Part shown: positions 10,323 through 59,938 of the stretch, piece after piece | How the letters are laid out: each line of letters opens with the position of its first letter | Numbering within the stretch: position 1 is the stretch's first letter | Assembly: GCF_004010195.1 (NCBI RefSeq) | Contig: NC_057719.1 | Coordinates: 49,313,336 to 49,377,335, forward strand | From: Chiloscyllium plagiosum | Taxonomy: Eukaryota | Direction of reading: 5' to 3' | Length of the DNA stretch: 64,000 nt | Notes under the pieces: model-generated | What the model was told of the DNA's origin: nothing | The model's input: only the letters and a program-made list of their open reading frames with translations | Database searches by the model: none | Position numbers and translations under genes: made by a program

Positions 10323-12309
10323 AGGTGTGGACAGGATAGATCAAGTGAATCCTTAGAAGAGTATAAAGGAAGTAGGAGTATACTTAAGAGGGAAATCAGG
10401 AGGGCAAAAAAGGGACATGAGATAGCTTTGGCAAATAGAGTTAAGGAGAATCCAAAGGGTTTTTACAAATATATTAAGGACAAAAGGGTAACTAGGGAGA
10501 GAATAGGGCCCTTCAAAGATCAGCAAGGCAGCCTTTGTGTGGAGTCACAGAAAATGGGGGAGATACCAAATGAATATTTTGCATCAGTATTTACTGTGAA
10601 AAGGATATGGACGATATAGACTATAGGGAAATAGATGGTGACATCTTGCAAAATGTCCAGATTACAGGGGAGGAAGTGCTGGATCTTTTGAAATGGTTAA
10701 AGGTGGATAAATCCCCAGGACCTGATCAGGTCTAGCTGAGAACTCTGTGGGAAGCGAGAGAAGTAATTGCTGGGCCTTTTGCTGAGATATTGGTATCATT
10801 GATAGTCACAGGTGAGGTGGCGGAAGACTGGAGGTTGGCAAACATGGTGCCACTGTTTAAGAAGGGCAGTAAAGACAAGCCAGGGAACTATAGACTGGTG
10901 AGCCTGACCTCGGTGGTGGGCAAGTTGTTGGGGGGAATCCTGAGGGACAGGATATACATGTATTTGGAAAGGTAAGGACTGATTCGGGATAGTCAACATG
11001 GCTTTGTGTGTGGGAAATCATGTCTCACAAACTTGATTGAGTTTTTTGATGAAGAGTAACAAAGAAGATTGATGAGGCAGAGCAGTAGATGTGATCTGTA
11101 TGGACTTCAGTAAGGCGTTCGACAAGGTTCCCCATGGGAGACTGATTAGCAAGGTTAGATCTTATGGAATACAGGGATAACTAGTTATTTGGATACAGAA
11201 CTGGCTCAAAGGTAGAAGACAGAGGGTGGTGGTGGAGGGTTGTTTTTCAGACTGGAGGCCTGTGACCAGTGGAGTGCCACAAGGATCGGTGCTGGGTCCT
11301 CTACTTTTTGTCATTTACATAAATGATTTGGACACAAGCATAAGAGGTACAGATAGTAAGTTTGCAGGTGACACCAAAATTGGAGGTGTAGTGGACAGCG
11401 AAGAGGGTTACCGCAGATTACAACAGGATCTGGACCAGATGGGCCAATGGGCTGAGAAGTGGCAGATGGAGTTTAAATCAGATAAATGTGAGGTGCTGCA
11501 TTTTGGGAAAACAAATCTTAGCAGGACTTGTACACTTAATGGTAAGGTCCTAGGGAGTGTTGCTGAACAAAGAGACCTTGGAATGCAGGTTCATAGTTCC
11601 TTGGAAGTGGAGTCGCAGGTAGATAGGATAGTGAAGAAGGCGTTTAGTATGTTTTCCTTTATTAGTCAAAGTATTGAGTACAGGAGTTGAGAGGTCATGT
11701 TGCGGCTGTACAGGAGATTGGTTAGTCCACTGTTGGAATATTGCATGCAATTCTGGTCTCCTTCCTATCGGAAAGATTTTGTGAAATTTGAAAGGGTTCA
11801 GAAAAGATTTACAAGGATGTTGCCAAGGTTGGAGGATTTGAGCTACAGGGAGAGGCTGAACAGGCTGGGGCTGTTTTCCCTGGAGCGTTGGAGGCTGAGG
11901 GGTGACCTTATAGAGGTTTACAAAATTATGAGGGGCATGGATAGGATAAATAGAAAAAGTCTTTTCCCTGGGGTCGGGGAATGCAGAACCAGAGGGCATA
12001 GGTTTAGGGTGAGAGGGGAAAGATATAAAAAAGACCTAAGGGGCACTTTTTCACGCAGAAGGTGGTATGTGTCTGGAATGAGCTGCCAGAGGATGTGGTG
12101 GAGGCTGGTACAATTGCAGCATTTAAGAGGCATTTGGATGGGTATATGAATAGGAAGGGTTTGGAGGGATATGGGCCGGGTGCTGGCAGGTGGGATTAGA
12201 TTGGGTTGGGATATCTGGTCGGCCTGGACAGGTTGGACTGAAGGGTTTGTTTCCATGCTGTACATCTCTATGACTCTATGACTCTATGACTCTATGACTC
12301 TATGACTCT
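10323..12309 (+). mobile_element. CR1/HER1-type LINE, 5'-truncated, nested in the opposite-strand copy
   Basis: RT motifs [55 protein letters not shown]; octamer tail; AAGTC repeated at 10318-10322 and 12310-12314. Confidence 0.95.
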
Positions 12310-12310
12310 A
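12266..12310 (+). repeat. (CTCTATGA)n octamer tail of CR1 LINE
   Basis: About 5.5 direct copies at the LINE 3' end. Confidence 0.95.
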
Positions 12311-13271
12311 AGTCCACTTTCAAAGAACTGAGAACCTATGCTCCAAGGCATCCTTGTTCAGCAACTCACCCCAGGTAATCACCATGAAGAGCATTAGTCC
12401 TGCCCTGATTTGTCTTTTCAAAATACAGAACCTCATATTTATCTAAGTTCAACTCCATCTGCCATTTCTTGGCCCAGTGGCCCATCTGATCAAGATCTTG
12501 TTGTACTCTGAGGTAACCTCCTTTGCTGTCCACTACACTAATTTTGATGTCATCTGCAAACTTACTAACTATACCTCCTATGTTCACACCCAAATCACTT
12601 ATATAAGGGACAAAAAGCAGTGGACCCTGCACCAATCGTTGTGACACACCACTGGTCACAAGCCTCCAGTCTGAAAAGCAGCCCTTCACCACCACCCTCT
12701 GCCTTCTACCTTCAAGCTAGTTCTGTACCTGAATGGCTAGTTCTCCCTGTGTCTAACGTTGTTAACCAGTCTCCCATGAGGAACCTTGTCGAATGCCTTT
12801 ACTGAAGTCCATATAGATCATGTCCTCTGCTCTTGCCTTCATCAATCCTCTTTGTTACTTCTTCAAAAAATTCAATCAAGTTAATCAGACACCATTTCCC
12901 ATGCAAAAAGCCATGTTGACTATCCCTAATCAGTTCTTGCCTTTCCACATACATATAAATCCTGTCCCTTGGGATCTCCTTCAACAACTTGCGCACCACT
13001 GATGTCAGGGTCACTGGTCTATAGTTTCCACTCTTTTCCTTACCACCTTTCTTAAATAGTGACACCAAGTTAGCTAACCTCCAGTCTTCCGGCACCTTGC
13101 ATGTGGCCATAGATAATACCAATATCTCAAGAAAGGGCCCAGCAATCACTTCCCTAGCTTCCCACAGAGTTTGAGGGTACACCTGATGAAGTTCTGGGAA
13201 TTTATCCACTTGTATACATTTGAAGGTATCCAGCACTACCTCTTCTGTAATATGGACATTTTTCAAGATGT

Positions 13272-13494
13272 GAAAATGTGTTGCTGAAAAAGCGCAGCAG
13301 GTCGGGCAGCACCCAAGGAGCAGGAGAATCGACATTTCGGGCATGAGCCCTTCTTCAGGTTTCCTGAAGAAGGGCTCATGCTCGAAACATCGATTCTCCT
13401 GCTCCTTGGATGCTGCCCGACCTGCTGCACTTTTCCAGCAACACATTTTTAGCTCTGATCTCCAGCATCTGTAGTCGTCACTTTCTCCTAGAAG
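13272..13494. mobile_element. Penelope-derived fold-back insertion (family A) with hammerhead motifs on both strands
   Basis: Inverted arms centred at about 13361; 14-bp TSD ATTTTTCAAGATGT at 13258-13271 and 13495-13508; CTGAAGA-stem-GAAA on each strand. Confidence 0.88.
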
Positions 13495-13719
13495 ATTTTT
13501 CAAGATGTTGTTATTTATTTCCCCAAGTTCTCTCGCTTGCATATTGTTCTCCATAGTAAACACTGATGCAAATTACTCATTTAGTATTTCCCCCAATTCC
13601 TGCGGTTCCATACAGAGGCAGCTATGCCGATCTTTAAGGGGACCTATCCTCTCCCTAGTTACTCTTTTCTCCTTAATGTATTTGTGGAAAAACTGGTTTA
13701 ATCCATGAAAGGTTCCAGG

Positions 13720-15360: not shown

Positions 15361-15622
15361 TAATGTGATTGACTATTAACTTCCCTCTAGGCTATTAGGG
15401 ATGGGCAATAAATGCTACCCAGTGACACTTTCATCCTGTGAATGAACAAAAAAAGATTGCAGATCCAAGAAAACATTTTCTTGCTTTTTTTTTTAAACAG
15501 CTTTAAAAGAATTACTTATTTTTCCCACTCCAATTCTTATTTAGGCTCTTGGAACATAGCATCTGAGGCTCCAACTTTAGTACAAATAGGTGAGGAGGAA
15601 TGAATGGACTGTCCTCTTTTTA

Positions 15623-16159
15623 GGAGAAAGTGACGAGTGCAGATGCTGGAGATCAGAGCTGAAAAATGTGTTGCTGGAAAAGCGCAGCAGGTCAGGCAGC
15701 ATCCAAGGAGCAGGAGAATCGATGTTTCGGGCATAAGCCCTTCTTCAGGAATGAGGAGGGTATGCCAAGCAGGCTAAGCTAAAAGGTAGGGAGGAGGAAC
15801 TTGGGGGAGGGGTGTTGGGAATGCAATAGGTGGAAGGAGGTTAAGGTGAGGGTGATAGGCCNNNNNNNNNNNNNNNNNNNNNNNNNNNNNNNNNNNNNNN
15901 NNNNNNNNNNNNNNNNNNNNNNNNNNNNNNNNNNNNNNNNNNNNNNNNNNNNNNNNNNNNNNNNNNNNNCCTTAACCTCCTTCCACCTATCGCATTTCCA
16001 ACGCCCCTCCCCCAAGTCCCTCCTCACTACCTTTTATCTTAGCCTGCTTGGCACACCCTCCTCATTCCTGAAGACGGGCTTATGCCCAAAACGTCGATTC
16101 TCCTGCTCCTTGGATGCTGCCTGACCTGCTGCGCTTTTCCAGCAACACATTTTTCAGCT
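15623..16159. mobile_element. Penelope-derived fold-back insertion (family A), assembly gap in its centre
   Basis: Long inverted arms either side of N run 15862-15969; 14-bp TSD CTGTCCTCTTTTTA at 15609-15622 and 16160-16173; hammerhead motifs at about 15718-15749 (-) and 16066-16096 (+, GAAA changed to AAAA). Confidence 0.88.
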
Positions 16160-16578
16160 CTGTCCTCTTTTTAACCTACTCAGTTGACCCCCATGAAGAG
16201 CTTTAACTCTTTTTAGCATGTGGCTGTATCACATTTCAATTAAAACGTAGTTTGCTGGTTCAAATTTCTGGAGCCAATGATAACGTATGCTTGAATGAAA
16301 GGAAAATATTTTTTTATTTTCTGACTAACCCTGAGAAAAATAATAAAGCATGATATCTCTCTCACTCACTCACTTTTAAAAAGAGGCAAGTGCCCACTGT
16401 AAACAGGAAGATTAAAAGAATGTGCAGTTCTTGAGGTGTTAGGTTGAACTTGAAACTTCTTTTTAATCAATGACTTCTGTCCTCAGCTGTAGCAAAATTT
16501 GTAGATGTCTTTGAGTTTTTGGTGAATTTGGATGTTTCTCTGATTTGCTTCCCATCAAGTCTTATCCACTGAGAGGCT

Positions 16579-16600: not shown

Positions 16601-16851
16601 GGAGCCTTCAGCGCCCTTTTTGCAGAATAGATTTCTGTAAGTTTCCTTTTGGTGCGGGCCATTCTTAGAAGATAATATGTTTGTTGCTTGTTGACAACCT
16701 CGACTATCGTCATCCAACTCAATTCCTTAGGAATATTGTTGAGGCATCCATTTTGTCATTCTTTGTAGGTTTCGGCTAACTCGCAGCTCAGGTGGCTTCT
16801 GCAGTCATCCTAATATCGGGCCCTCGTTACGTAAAGGTGTTTTCTCCTAAA

Positions 16852-17058
16852 GGAGAAAGTGAGGACTGCAGATGCTGGAGATCAGAGCTGAAAATGTGTT
16901 GCTGGAAAAGCCCAGCAGGTCAGGCAGCATCCAGGGAACAGGAGAATTGACGTTTCGGGCATAAGCCTGAAGAAGGGCTTATGCCCGAAATGTCGATTCT
17001 CTTGTTCCCTGGATGCTGCCTGACTTGCTGCGCTTTTCCAGCAACACATTTTCAGCTC
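16852..17058. mobile_element. Penelope-derived fold-back insertion (family A)
   Basis: Inverted arms; 14-bp TSD TGTTTTCTCCTAAA at 16838-16851 and 17059-17072; + strand hammerhead CTGAAGA(16967)-agggc-ttat-gccc-GAAA-tg-TC. Confidence 0.88.
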
Positions 17059-20000
17059 TGTTTTCTCCTAAACAAAAGTCCCAGGTATTAAATCAATCAA
17101 TTGAATTAAAGATTAATAAGACATAATTTGTAACTCCATGACCACCTAGTAACACTTTCAAAGTTGAGATAGCAATGAGTTGCCTGAGAAGGATATCAAA
17201 CATATGAATCAAAGGTGAATAAATGTTGTTGAGGTACAGATGAACAATGATTTGAGTTAATGGTAGAACAAGTTGTAGAGGCTTAATGGCCTACTCCTGG
17301 ATCATTGCTATAGGTTTACTCTTCTTTCTGTAATGCTGTAATCTATTTTTAGGCAGTTCTTCCTAGTGTTTATTATTTAAATGTACAACTGTGCTAAGAA
17401 GAGTTTCTAAAACAATATGGAGAGAATTCCACCAAAATAATGCTTCTATTTGGCTGATATACATTCAGTACATTTTCCATGTTGATTCACATCCTATCTA
17501 CTTAAGCCTAGAGAATTCAGACACAGGTTGGTAACAGTCAGGCCCTATAAGCAGAAGGAAAGGTTACTGCTGAAGCTAAACCAACTCAAACTCCATAACT
17601 TACCAACACAAAGTACTGGAATGCTTCTACTTGTACAGACAGGACTACCCAATTTGTTTGGGCATTGATTTACAAGGTTAGCAGGAGCCAGTGGCAAGAA
17701 TCCCAGCCCTATTTTCTGATCTGCAAATCTTGGATGCATTTGAGCATTCTATTGTACAGCTATTTTCCCTGGTATCATTTTGTTGGATTAAAGGCTATTT
17801 TGCCTGATGAGTCTTGTTCCCACTAGTAGCTGAACAAAACTGCTCAAACTCATTATACAAATAATTAAGGGAGGAGTCACAGATGTTACATATTGGATGA
17901 CATTACTGGTGTCCAAGGTTAGAAGTGGCCACACATAATCCTCCCGTGGTATTTTGCAATTAAAAATAATTAGTACATAAATTAAGTCATTGAATACTGA
18001 TTATAATAATGATGAACTTTAATATTATATAAATAAAGCTCAGTTGTCCATTTCTCTGTTATCTACTGGGCTACTGTCACTATATATATGATGTACTATT
18101 TTACTCCAGATAATGAATCTAATCAATAAAGTTAATTTTATATAACTGATTTCAGTTTTCCCTTATTAACAGCACATATATAAACAACGAGAAGTTATGA
18201 GATGATGTGTAAACACTGAGATGGCGATGTTTGGCTGCTTAACACCCTTTTTAACTTTCTGGTGACTTAAGTTATGTTTTGTCCCTAAAATTGTATCTGT
18301 GCTATGCATGCACACATCTGGTGTGAGCAGGACCTGACTGTATTTTGGTCAGGCCATTATTTCACACAGTCTGCCTGCTGGAATCATACAGCTGAGGCAG
18401 ATTATTATGTCATTCAGTGTGTAATGCTGACTTGATACCACCTTTGCCATTTTGGCATTCAGTACTTCAGCTAGCATTCTTTTAGATATGCACAGCAGTA
18501 TTGTGTAAGATAATGGTTCTGTAGCGGTTAATATTCATGTTACATTTGGTTCCAGTCATTCTATTGATGTGAAACAGTTTGTGGCTGGAGACAAGGAATT
18601 CTACTTTAGCTCTCAGAGGTAGCAGATATATCTGTAACAGCTCCCTAAGGTCCTAGTAAAAATGTCTGAACAAACTTACTGCTAATCCAGTTTCTATTTC
18701 ACTATACTACTTACTATTGGTACTGCAATAAACCGTCTTGCTATGTGAAATTTGTGTCCCTCTGAACAAACCTACAGTGTGTAATATCTGCAACAAATCA
18801 CTAACTATGCCTCAGACAAAGTAAAGGGAAATTAGCATTTGTGGCAAATAACTATTTCAGAGAACCCATGCCTGGTGCCATATGTTCTTTAAAATAACAA
18901 ACGATACAGGTTACCGGAAATGGTCACCTTGGAAAATGACACATTGCTGCAGCAGTGTGAATCTGGTCCTCAACATGAGCAGAAGAAATCCAGAAGACCA
19001 AGAGGCAAAGGAAAACTTTATGGTATGTTTGTTTACCACTTTAAGAGTATTACTGCTTTAAGAAGATACAAATAATCATTTGGCGAATAAAAGTATTTGT
19101 CAACAGTGAGAGATGGCAGTAGGTATGGCAGCAACAACAACAAAAAATAAAGTTAGCACTCCAAAAGCAAAACTTCATTCAGAAGCTGATAAGAAGTCCT
19201 TGGACAAAATTGTAAGGTAAGGAAGAGAGAGAAAAGCATAGAAAATAAAATACAGGGCTCCTTAGCTATGGAGGTTCTGTAAGGAACATACAAAGCAGCC
19301 AGGAAGTAGTATGAGATCCTTCAGGGAAAACTGAATAACTATGTGAAAATGGTACAAAAATCATAAAGGGAAGGGAAGAGAGTGTAAAAGAGAATTTTCA
19401 TCTCTCATAATGAGCATCACCACTATCGGCATTAGTATTCATAAGATTCAACAGCAATGAACATAGAAAAAGCCAGCAATGAAATTTAGACCGAGGCAAT
19501 AGATAAACTCTCAGGGCTGATTTCAGATGATAAACAGTAACCTTAAATGAACCCAGTAAAAGAGTCCAGCAGAAGAAGAAAATTCAGGAAAATTTAAAGA
19601 TCTATAAGGGCTGCAACATGATAGTTTATTTTGGCAGAACGATCAACAATTGCAGCTAGAATACTTTTTGTTTAAAACATTGTACAGAAGTTCTTGGTGT
19701 TTTAAACCATGAAAAGCAGAAAAGCATCCATTTTACTTGGACAGAAGTGGGAAAACTACAACTTCTGCAGATAGTGGGGAAACTATCAAAGAAGCAGGTT
19801 GCCATAATTTTGTTTGTTATAAAAGGGAGAAGAAAACCCCCAAAAAAGACAGAATAACCCAGTAAACAGTGAAGAAATGTAGTATTACAAAGAAACAGAT
19901 TTAAAAATTACGGAGGAAGTAAGTTATTATGAATAGGCAGTGATACACCTTAAAACTTTACTGAAGAATTCAATACAATATTACAGGAATAGAGTTTTAA

Positions 20001-51941: not shown

Positions 51942-52709
51942 AAGAGTGGCTGTTTCAGAACATCAATCACAAGTCTGCTTAACAGTTTTGGTTTCAAGTT
52001 CACTGAAACAAAATATTAAAGATAACCATGAAAAAAGACTGACATGACCTGAATGAGAAGGGCTGGTAGCTGTCTACTGTGTTGGTGCTAATCATATACC
52101 TCAAAGGGAATATGCATGTGGCATGAGGTACCACATTTGAGTGGAGTATGTGGTTGCTTGTGTGTACTATTTATCTTTGTTGTATCAATTACCTAAAGAG
52201 AATTTTATCTTTTTATTTGAAATATGATTTGTCTGATTCTCTTGTGTTGGTTCTGATTCATGTTAAAACAAAAGCTACAAAAAATAATGTTTTTGGTAAT
52301 TTCTTCACTTGGAGTGCTATTCAGTAAATTTGTGGCTCCCATAACAAATATGGGGCAAGTTTCGCATATGATCACAGAGACTGGAATGAACATTCCAACA
52401 TTTTAACAGGCAATATTGCAGCTCTGCATTTGTCATATTTTATTGGAAAATCAATATGACTACCTTTGAGGCTTAAGCTGAGTTTAGGAAGGTGGCTTGA
52501 CTCTTGACAACTTAAACAGTTGCAAAAACTCAATTTACAGGATGTAACAGAGCAAACGGGGATTAATGAAAGCTCAGTAGATAAGAGAGTTGGATTCTTG
52601 AAGAATTGGCTAGACACTTGAGGCTCAGGGAAGGAAGAATCATTATTGACCAAGTACAACTGGCCAGAATTTTTAAAAAAGGCTAAGAAAGGTTAACTGA
52701 GAAAAAGAA

Positions 52710-52947
52710 GTCATGATTTGGAGATGCCGGTGTTGGACTGGGGTGTACAAAATTAAAAATCACACAACACCAGGTTATAGTCCAACAGGTTTAATTGGAA
52801 GCACACTAGCTTTTGGAGTGTCGCTCCTTCATCAGGTGATAGTGGAGGGCCCGCCACTACCACTTGATGAAGGAGCGTCGCTCCGAAAGCTAGTGTGCTT
52901 CCAATTAGACCTGTTGGACTATAACCTGGTGTTGTGTGATTTTTTAA
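52710..52947. mobile_element. Penelope-derived fold-back insertion (family B) with two opposed hammerhead motifs
   Basis: Inverted arms centred at about 52845-52855; AGAAAAAGAA at 52700-52709 and 52948-52957; + core TTGATGA..GAAAGCTA, - core CTGATGA..AAAAGCTA (one core mutation each). Confidence 0.85.
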
Positions 52948-55432
52948 AGAAAAAGAAATTAGCCAGAGAAAAAAAGAAATAAAGAGATATGTAAAGAGAC
53001 AACGACAGCGAACATGTATCTCTTAGAACTGCCACTAAAACAAATTATGCATTTATTTTTCCCATTTGTTTATGAAGCTTTGCTGTTTCTCTCCCATTAG
53101 TAGCCATACTTTATGCAAACTACCAGATGTCAGAATTACATCATTGGCTGTATAGCACTTTGGTATGCCCTGAGACCATTTAAAAAAAGTAAAAGTGAAG
53201 TCACCATAGTCCTACTGGACCATAGGGCTGCTCTCTTATCAGAGAGAGCGAACTGATAATTGTTTAACCTGAGGGCTGTCACACCTCAAGTGAAACTTAA
53301 GAAAAAAAACTTAGTGATCCTTGCAATTAAACTTTATGGTTATCAATTACTGTAATTTTTATATAATTATATAATTTGCTCAACTTCAGTGATTTTGTTT
53401 TGTTGAAGAATTAGTTTATGATTTTAAAATATTGTTCTCAATATGCATATTAATCTAATTTTAAACCTGATGCATTTATAACTATTATAAATATGACTCA
53501 TTGTGGTGGAATCATCCACTGGGAGGCTCTTATATGGTCTTTTAATATTCTTTTCAGTGGCATTTGGAATGGGAGGAGTGACAGCGAGAACCAGAGGCCT
53601 GACGGGAAGGTAAATTAACAGTATACAAACTTACCTCGTGTACAGGCGGAGTGCACGCTGAGCAGGAGTGGATATGAGACTGCTGTGTAAAGGAGATTAC
53701 ATATTTGAACAGTTACTTTACCCGAAACACTACTTAGGTAGTGTCTCCCACCCATCCTCCTCCTCTAACCAAAAAAAAGGTTCTCTGCTTTGGATTGGTA
53801 AGATGAGTAGTCTTTTATTTCCTCTCTTTTAGTTTTTCAGTAGGCTCGTTGGGAATTTAGAATAGTGGGAATGGAGGTTAGGGCAATTGAGTGTTCCTCC
53901 TGCAGAATGTGGGAGGTAAGGGTCACCACTAGTGTCCCTGTTGACTGTATTTGTGGGAAGTGCACCCAACTCCAGCTCCTTGAAAATTGCATTAGGAAAC
54001 TGGAGCTGGAGCTGGATGAACTTTGGATCATTCAGGAGGTGGGAGATTATTGAGAGGAGTTACAGGAAGGTAGCCACATCTCAGGTACAAGAAGAAGGTA
54101 GGTGGGTTACTGTCAGTGGATGGAAAGGGAACTGGCAGGCAGTGCAGGGATCTCCTATGGCTGTTCCCCTCAATAACAAATATACCATTTTGGATATTGT
54201 TGGGGGGGGGGGGAACTTATCAGGGGTAAGTAATGGGGCATAGGTCTCTTGTGTCTGTCCCTGTTGCTCAGAAGGGAAGGGGGAAGAGGAGCAGAACATT
54301 AGTCATTGGGGACTCCATAGTTAGTGGTACAGACAGGAGGTTCTGTGGGAATGAGAAAGATTCATGGTTGGTGTGATGCCTCCTGGTTGCCAGGAATCGT
54401 GATGTCTTGGACAGTGTTTTCAGGATCCTTGAGGGGGAGGGGGAGCAACCCAAGTCATGACCCACATAGGCACCATCGACATAGGTAGGAAAAGGCATGG
54501 GGATTTAAGTCAGAAATTCAGGGAGCTGGGGTGAAAGCTTAGAGCTAGAACAAACAGAGTTATCTCTGGTTTGTTGCCCGTGCCACATGTTAGCGAGGCG
54601 AGGTGAGGAATAGGGACAGGGAGGAGTTGAATACATGGCTACAGGGATGGTGCAGGAGGGAGAGTTTTGGATTCCTGCATTTATGGGGCTCTTTCTCGGG
54701 TAGGTGGGACATCTACAAACATTTAGATGTCTTCAGAGGGGTACCAATATTCTGGGGGGGGATGTTTGCAAATGCTGTTCGGGAGGGTTTAAATTAATTC
54801 AGCAGGGGGATGGGAACCTGAATTGTGTTCCAGTATACAGAAAGCTGAGAGTAGTGAGGTCAGAAATAAGGTTTCAAGGTCTCAAGAGGGTACCAGCAAG
54901 CAAGAAGTTGGTTGGAAGTGTGTATATTTCAATGCCAGGAGCATCCAGAATAAGATGGGTGAACTTGCAGCATGGTTGGTACCTGGCATTTCCATGTTGT
55001 GGCCATTTCGGGGACATAGATAGAAAAGGAACAGGAATGGTTGTTGCAGGTTCCAGGATTTAGATGTTTCAGTAAGAACAGAGAGAATGGTAAAAGACAG
55101 GGAGGTGTGGCACTGTTAGTCAAGGACAGTATTATGGTAGCAGAAAGGATGTTTGAGGACTCGTCTACTGAGGTAGTATGGACTGAGGTTAGAAACAGGA
55201 AAGAAGAGGTCACTCTGTTTGGAGTTTTCTATAGGCCTCCAAATAGTTACAGAGATGTAGATGAACAGATAGCAAATATGATTCTCGATAGGAGCAAGAG
55301 TGACAGGGTATTTGTTATGGGGGACTTTTAAGTTTCCAAATATTGACTGAGAATACTATAGTTTGAGTAATTTAGATGGGTCAGTTTTTGTCCAATGTGT
55401 GCAGGAGGGTTTCCTGACACAGTACGTAGATA

Positions 55433-55631
55433 AATGTGTTGCTGGAAAAGCGCAGCAGGTCAAGCAGCATCCAAGGAGCAGGAGAATCGACGTTTTGGGC
55501 ATAAGCCCTTCTTCAGGACTTATGCCCAAAACGTCGATTCTCCTGCTCCTTGGATGCTGCCTGATCTGCTGCGCTTTTCCAGCAACACACTTTTCAGCTC
55601 TAATCTCCAGCATTTGCAGTCCTCACTTTCT
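55433..55631. mobile_element. Penelope-derived fold-back insertion (family A) inside CR1 ORF2
   Basis: Inverted arms; 15-bp TSD CACAGTACGTAGATA (55418-55432) and CACAATACGTAGATA (55632-55646), one mismatch. Confidence 0.88.
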
Positions 55632-55758
55632 CACAATACGTAGATAGGCCAACAAGGGGCGAGGCCACCTTAGATTTGGTACTGGGTAATGAACCCGGCC
55701 AGGTTTTCGATTTGGAGATAGGTGAGCACTTTGGTGATAGCGACCACACTTCAGTTAT

Positions 55759-59757: not shown

Positions 59758-59938
59758 TTGAAAAATGTGGTGCTGGAAAAACACAGCAGGCCAGGTAGCA
59801 TCCTGAGGAAGGGCTTATGCCTGAAACGTCGATTCTCCTGCTCCTTGGATGCTGCCTGGCCTGCTGTGTTTTTCCAGCACCACATTTTTCAACTCTGGTA
59901 CTCCAGCACCTGCAGTCCTCACTTTCTCCTAGTTGATC
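59758..59938. mobile_element. Penelope-derived fold-back insertion (family A, short left arm)
   Basis: 13-bp TSD TTAAACATCAATG at 59745-59757 and 59939-59951; inverted arms. Confidence 0.88.
59799..59834 (+). ncRNA. minimal hammerhead ribozyme motif (intact core)
   Basis: auc-CUGAGGA-a-GGGC-uuau-GCCU-GAAA-cg-UC-gau: both core boxes, palindromic ACGU, GUC cleavage triplet, auc/gau stem I. Confidence 0.75.

Follow-up and report, generated by a model that had tools for sequence, protein, structure and literature searches.

Head-to-head 5′ copies of a Penelope-like element in Chiloscyllium plagiosum as probable by-products of abortive integration

Inverted, 5′-truncated copies with a one-sided tail of 30–40 bp and a target-site duplication (TSD) are described as the standard insertions of endonuclease-bearing Penelope-like elements (EN+ PLEs) (PMC8557442, PMC3846280), and a C-x2-5-C-x2-C linker between the reverse transcriptase (RT) and the endonuclease is given as a mark of Neptune and Nematis (PMC8557442). 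The Penelope promoter lies in the pLTR, and regeneration of the pLTR is presented as a step without obvious mechanism (PMC2377424). For Poseidon, in vitro work reported two internal RT starts, nicking and extension of both strands, and the use of uncleaved RNA as template (PMC11167929). In Schistosoma, dual minimal hammerheads were reported to lie 100–700 bp apart on opposite strands (PMC4209133). Inverted pLTRs, one-sided tails and opposite-strand hammerhead pairs are already known. In the main texts of the open-licence literature, we found no description of the palindromes of Chiloscyllium plagiosum, nor of a 5′ stop boundary, twin priming or strong-stop products in Penelope.

Here we analysed one such palindrome at positions 13258–13508 of a 64,000-nt stretch of C. 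plagiosum contig NC_057719.1 (hereafter the window), for which an initial annotation had described a hairpin of roughly 220 bp with a hammerhead on each strand and an exact 14-bp TSD. The insert itself occupies 13272–13494 (223 bp) and consists of two head-to-head PLE 5′ pieces of ~90 and ~135 nt. It is bracketed by an exact 14-bp direct repeat on the forward strand (13258–13271 and 13495–13508), and it lies within a putative decayed LINE reverse-transcriptase fragment on the reverse strand (12799–13700), recognised by its frame, an RVT_1 match (E 0.007, below cut-off) and paralogous copies. Among 19 left-flank matches examined in these LINE copies, 16 matched on both flanks, and in 13 of the 16 the 14-mer is single with the flanks in register; therefore, the repeat is a true target duplication, as first proposed. 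The first five bases of the right TSD also match the element's own continuation, possibly a priming microhomology. Upstream of the insert, two opposed LINE fragments at 11000–12912 of the window form a nested inverted repeat (arms 211 and 226 nt, 79–83%); an 8-bp tandem repeat (12258–12318) terminates the first of them, and the second hosts the insert.

Element positions are counted from position 0, the A located four bases 5′ of hammerhead C3, and the predicted cut would leave a 5′ end at +32. On this numbering, the short arm without a tail (13272–13359, reverse strand) covers +3 to +91, and the long arm (13361–13494, forward strand) covers +1 to +134. They meet at a central junction (13360–13362) which differs among copies. 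The interval 13266–13359 pairs with 13363–13456 at 90% complementarity across a 3-nt loop, giving ~90 nt per arm, and the last 44 nt of the insert (13451–13494, forward strand) form an unpaired, one-sided tail in the sense of PMC8557442 and PMC11167929, which would lie between two putative RT start sites. The proposed hairpin thus agrees in total length with the insert, while only ~90 nt of each arm are paired.

Both strands carry a minimal type I hammerhead motif with the core boxes, stem II, extra base and NUH site. On the forward strand (13364–13391), the core comprises CUGAAGA at 13364–13370, GAAA at 13384–13387 and UC at 13390–13391, with the predicted cut after 13391; on the reverse strand (13358–13331), the same boxes lie at 13358–13352, 13338–13335 and 13332–13331, with the predicted cut after 13331. 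The self-complementary CG between GAAA and UC, which is kept in most relatives, has been lost from both, reading CA on the forward strand and UG on the reverse strand, so that the self-complementary helix III needed for the dimer fold is absent from this copy. The forward core has also suffered one C-to-U change in stem II, leaving a G-U pair. A hammerhead on each strand is therefore present as motifs, with helix III decayed in both, and the two ribozymes are likely inert. A search of the insert against Rfam, with E values up to 1 accepted, yielded no match to any hammerhead family, evidently because minimal hammerheads score below the family models; sub-threshold Rfam microRNA matches to the hairpins were rejected as chance. 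In one subfamily (L066, L073), a fully paired 4-bp helix I starts exactly at position 0, and the commoner subfamilies have a central mismatch there; hammerhead activity may differ between the two kinds. At 13378–13458 (forward strand), and also in relatives, a 26-codon frame begins with an AUG located in hammerhead loop II; this frame precedes the main ORF and is read in a different phase.

The nature of the parent element was deduced from longer copies. On the upstream side, they contained a GIY-YIG frame (Pfam E 2e-4, 21.8–22.1 bits, just below the cut-off of 22.6), accompanied in L222, L224 and L228 by a C-x4-C-x2-C linker, and on the downstream side an ORF starting near +165 extends into RT sequence (RVT_1 E 0.0085). 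The RT and GIY-YIG parts were seen in separate broken copies, with Pfam scores just under the cut-off. No intact full-length element was recovered among the sampled copies, in which long "open frames" proved to be mostly N gaps, and neither Pfam for the L222 frame nor the PDB for an RT piece returned a match. The hammerhead segment both follows GIY-YIG and precedes the ORF, and in L233 an upstream pLTR is followed by the ORF. With GIY-YIG upstream and the RT ORF downstream, the insert therefore represents the pLTR and tail of an endonuclease-bearing PLE, present twice, which agrees with the pLTR origin already assumed for it. The linker motif points to a parent of Neptune/Nematis type.

Palindromic units of this kind are abundant. 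In 140 evenly spaced 10-kb stretches (1.34 Mb without N), 253 arms and 48 short head-to-head units were found, or ~36 per Mb; with the sample drawn from large contigs only, this extrapolates to ~127,000 units genome-wide. The genome-wide count called for in the initial annotation also yielded 5,380 matches to the exact back-to-back double-core pattern, against 0 for the control. One long arm with the tail and one short arm without it were combined in 48 of 48 units, and 41 of 48 had a TSD (one mismatch allowed, mostly 14–19 bp), compared with 3 of 235 mismatched controls; this is the asymmetric arrangement of EN+ PLE insertions, with the tail being 44 nt at 13258–13508. Solo copies that lack a partner arm use both 3′ ends too, and arm lengths are graded, up to coding sequence. 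The window itself contains a further three short units of this family in head-to-head arrangement (16851–17060, 55432–55632 and 59762–59932), each with a different centre and a long and a short arm, and a longer inverted unit at 15618–16162, whose arms reach at least 90–110 nt upstream of the core and whose centre is an assembly gap.

The high copy number could suggest that the palindrome is a non-autonomous element in its own right (SINE-, MITE- or retrozyme-like), propagated as a whole from master loci, and a few centre types do recur (11, 7, 4 and 2 members among the first 50 listed of the 5,380 matches). The same 50 matches, counted by eye, fall into 30 centre types rather than a fixed one. 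Moreover, the 22 oriented best matches include 13 centre types, and the commonest of these is found facing either way with respect to the tail (5 and 4 of 22). Centres differ from copy to copy, and therefore the mirror half is made at each landing. The graded arm lengths, and the fact that the units have no head-to-tail hammerhead repeats, further argue against copying from master loci, a reading which is largely refuted and to which we give very little credence.

A second reading that attributes a role to the palindrome, that of a functional self-silenced double ribozyme or a small-RNA source, had been put forward in the initial annotation, and part of its physical basis was confirmed by computation. 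The predicted fold of the insert reaches −172 kcal/mol (z −20.4), with 0 of 200 shuffles as good, in accordance with the rod-like fold that had been anticipated. When either strand is transcribed by read-through, the antisense arm comes first; the computed probability of stem II is ~1e-16 to 1e-15, and opening stem II would cost 38 kcal/mol relative to the rod, likewise in prefix folds. Each core is thus predicted to be sequestered by its own antisense; such sequestration is a property of any palindrome and not special to 13258–13508. Element ends are also present in RNA: one raw run contained 2,582 reads matching them, 93% of which continue into unrelated sequence, and the element ends ride in host transcripts as passengers. 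The same run, a fragmented library of uncertain species match in which 2 in 100 reads were examined, had no position where many molecules begin or end, and no discrete RNA ends for circular or unit-length RNA were listed in the RNA runs, whose libraries are unsuited to such RNA. A second raw run contained no matching reads, and none of the matching pieces spanned the locus at 13258–13508. Loose ends at position 0 were also present in reads and contigs from other samples.

The state of the cores speaks against a retained ribozyme function. Both cores (C3 in both arms) are kept in only 8 of the 48 sampled units, and C3 in at least one arm in 33 of 48; two-hammerhead units are a minority outcome. 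Across 98 young arms, private changes strike catalytic positions as often as the downstream flank (7/607 versus 78/5479, p 0.72), and decay of the helix III CpG equals that of downstream CpGs (24/150 versus 32/178, p 0.66). This is the neutral decay that the initial annotation had named beforehand as part of what would refute its reading. When all variants were counted, the catalytic positions were slightly less variable (7/607 versus 131/5539, p 0.06), and the six hammerhead CpG positions pooled had decayed less than the downstream CpGs (52/452 versus 32/178, p 0.037); this lower variability may reflect conservation in the source elements. Together with the helix III losses in both cores of 13258–13508 and its location in a dead LINE, these observations make a dedicated ribozyme unit highly improbable, and the variable centres argue against it as well. 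The suggestion of a small-RNA source gained no support either, with neutral-like core decay and no enrichment of cDNA ends at the cleavage site. The locus itself is likely an inert stump.

The most informative property of the arms is where they stop. Among 96 young arms (identity at least 90%, 10 of them censored by gaps or edges), 33 stops fall in 302 nt at −5 to +4, compared with 1 in 1285 nt at −100 to −6, giving a ~140-fold stop excess over upstream at a boundary just 5′ of the core. A further 20 stops in 611 nt at +5 to +14 spread the cluster over −5 to +14, and the cleavage site contributes 2 stops (379 nt surveyed) and the interval +35 to +65 contributes 15 (2680 nt). Solo copies share the same boundary, and it is therefore not a product of palindrome joining. 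Of 20 ORF-bearing copies (from a query that itself began at the boundary, one match being the query's own locus), 16 begin at −6 to +12 and 4 extend upstream. A splice-acceptor origin of the boundary was ruled out, with the upstream AG having no stop cluster (0 stops at −20 to −6, 1 at −100 to −21). Cleaved RNA as the template was likewise rejected: a single early copy (L050) stopped at the cleavage site, and the samples contained no excess there (2 of 96 paired arms).

The same behaviour is seen in a second hammerhead family, distinguished by its stem II. Its 86 arms have 38 stops in 370 nt at −11 to −2 from C3 and 0 stops in 456 nt at their own cleavage site, and 21 of 24 pairs combine a long and a short arm. 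Within a single genome, two hammerhead families that are unrelated to each other share the stop boundary and the long/short rule. In the second family, TATAAA lies 38–40 nt 5′ of C3 in 10 of the 11 copies with upstream sequence, placing the boundary ~30 nt below the TATA box and up to 12 nt 5′ of C3. The family of 13258–13508 has TTATCT at −26 to −32 in 28 of 31 upstream copies and no canonical TATA, and its boundary sequence TCATTCC is one that we take to be initiator-like. The bases before position 0, tabulated for a cap-derived G, were 11 G, 21 C, 6 A and 6 T (n = 44). We take the boundary to be the probable 5′ end of the element RNA. Two second-family copies lie in the window (52706–52944 and 1–299), one of them palindromic, and another palindrome of this family (L134:5833–6028) occupies a paralogous LINE copy, at a distance of no more than ~50 nt from the position where our insert landed.

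The boundary could alternatively reflect stalling of the RT where the hammerhead begins on its 5′ side, as might happen at an RNA dimer, with double priming otherwise retained. The helix I 5′ strand lies at the same position, there is a shoulder of stops over the core (+5 to +14), and minimal hammerheads have been proposed to pair as dimers (PMC4209133). A stall is difficult to reconcile with the second family, in which the boundary may precede C3 by as much as 12 nt and is itself preceded by the TATA box, with the ORF-bearing copies that start at the boundary, and with the finding that arms past the boundary seldom stop later. We consider such a stall improbable and retain the RNA start as the preferred explanation.

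Combined with the above analysis, the insert is probably best read as two head-to-head copies of the PLE 5′ end, an abortive integration product generated by double priming and run-off and not a working RNA. The element endonuclease would nick both target strands, 14 bp apart, and each target 3′ end would prime reverse transcription inside the RNA, from a distal start at ~+130 that gives the tail and from a proximal start at ~+90. The predicted mRNA start lies a few bases upstream of the hammerhead core, and both RT starts would be near this 5′ end; hence, both cDNAs would reach the end of the uncleaved RNA at position 0 and run off, after which annealing or repair would join their ends. As passengers of the element 5′ end, the hammerheads would be buried in any read-through RNA.

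The relation between the two arms allows this scheme to be compared with fold-back self-priming, where a single cDNA extended to the RNA 5′ end would fold onto itself and be prolonged along its own sequence, up to the point where it anneals to the second target end. The arms share subfamily variants, with 5 discordant of 104 against 28.7 expected if they were independent (background 29/1124), and a rare change at position 58 is present in both arms of the 13258–13508 copy. One RNA or one source was therefore copied twice; two different RNAs per insertion are not supported, although two RNAs of one subfamily may have served. This concordance fits double priming and fold-back equally, and head-to-head palindromic junctions have been interpreted as self-priming (PMC3846280). 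Against fold-back, the end of the short arm (+84 to +99) is the same as in partnerless solo copies and hence looks like a priming site. In addition, the 5′ boundary is retained by 26 of 48 short arms and 15 of 48 long arms (medians +4 and +11, p 9e-5), a difference that must be explained under any model, and both strands were extended in the Poseidon system (PMC11167929). Fold-back is thus unlikely in our estimation, and double priming remains the favoured route.

Beyond the single insert, a more tentative proposal, which we rate as plausible and short of probable, is that PLEs pass through a strong-stop stage, in which the mRNA starts before the hammerhead, both strands are primed within the first 135 nt, the cDNAs run off, and an obligatory jump is needed to finish. 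If so, failed jumps would leave palindromes and solo stumps, misdirected jumps would give chimaeras of an ORF fragment and a fresh copy, and correct jumps would regenerate the pLTR or a partial tandem, with the hammerhead copied uncleaved. In 9 of the 20 ORF-bearing copies and two further loci, a fresh copy that starts at −11 to +6 comes after an ORF 5′ fragment, and one more case starts at −66. Such chimaeras, with the fresh copy near position 0, are L006, L026, L231, L232, L238–L242, L246 and L250, and they appear as expected for a template jump after run-off. The palindrome at 13258–13508 is a real and ordinary by-product, and its interest is carried by this testable strong-stop reading. 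The long/short rule and the sharp stop yield specific predictions for the in vitro system that already exists, and both are relevant to pLTR and tandem regeneration. As a class, the roughly hundred thousand junctions preserve a natural archive of how Penelope elements integrate, and the cycle of these elements is understood only in part. In scans, the many perfect hairpins of this genome will also pass for microRNA precursors or viroid-like RNAs.

In L1 twin priming, two target ends prime on the RNA and give non-overlapping pieces; two target ends would likewise prime in our case, and, unlike L1, both pieces copy the same stretch. Retroviral minus-strand strong-stop DNA is a short cDNA ending at the RNA 5′ end, and the arms proposed here would likewise be short cDNAs terminating at such an end. 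Non-LTR retrozymes, as far as they are presented in PMC7229834 and bioRxiv 10.64898/2026.07.22.740005, share a non-coding, PLE-derived nature and a type I hammerhead with our units. They are head-to-tail tandems releasing circles, whereas in 13258–13508 the halves are arranged head-to-head and each strand carries a single core, so that unit-length RNA cannot be excised from it; the likeness to viroid-like or retrozyme RNAs drawn in the initial annotation is unsupported. With the minimal type I hammerheads of PLE pLTRs (PMC4209133), our motifs share the extra base before stem II, the G10.1-C11.1 pair and a short helix I; the self-complementary 15.2/16.2, a trait of that family, has been lost from both cores of 13258–13508. 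The dual motifs of Schistosoma are 100–700 bp apart in the same source, compared with only 5 bases between our two cores. Poseidon of the green anole (PMC11167929) shares two internal RT starts defining the tail, and offers a precedent for both-strand extension and an uncleaved template. It belongs to another clade, as the parent here has a linker of Neptune/Nematis type, and its ORF starts in stem II, whereas that of our parent starts near +165; palindromic products and a 5′ stop boundary are not described in the covered text of that account. The closest match is provided by EN+ PLE insertions (PMC8557442, PMC3846280), with which the units share the head-to-head inverted copy, the tail on one arm, the TSD, the pLTR hammerhead and a parent ORF with RT and GIY-YIG; what distinguishes C. 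plagiosum is that here the whole insertion consists of two short arms, that this is the commonest product, and that one stop boundary serves both arms.
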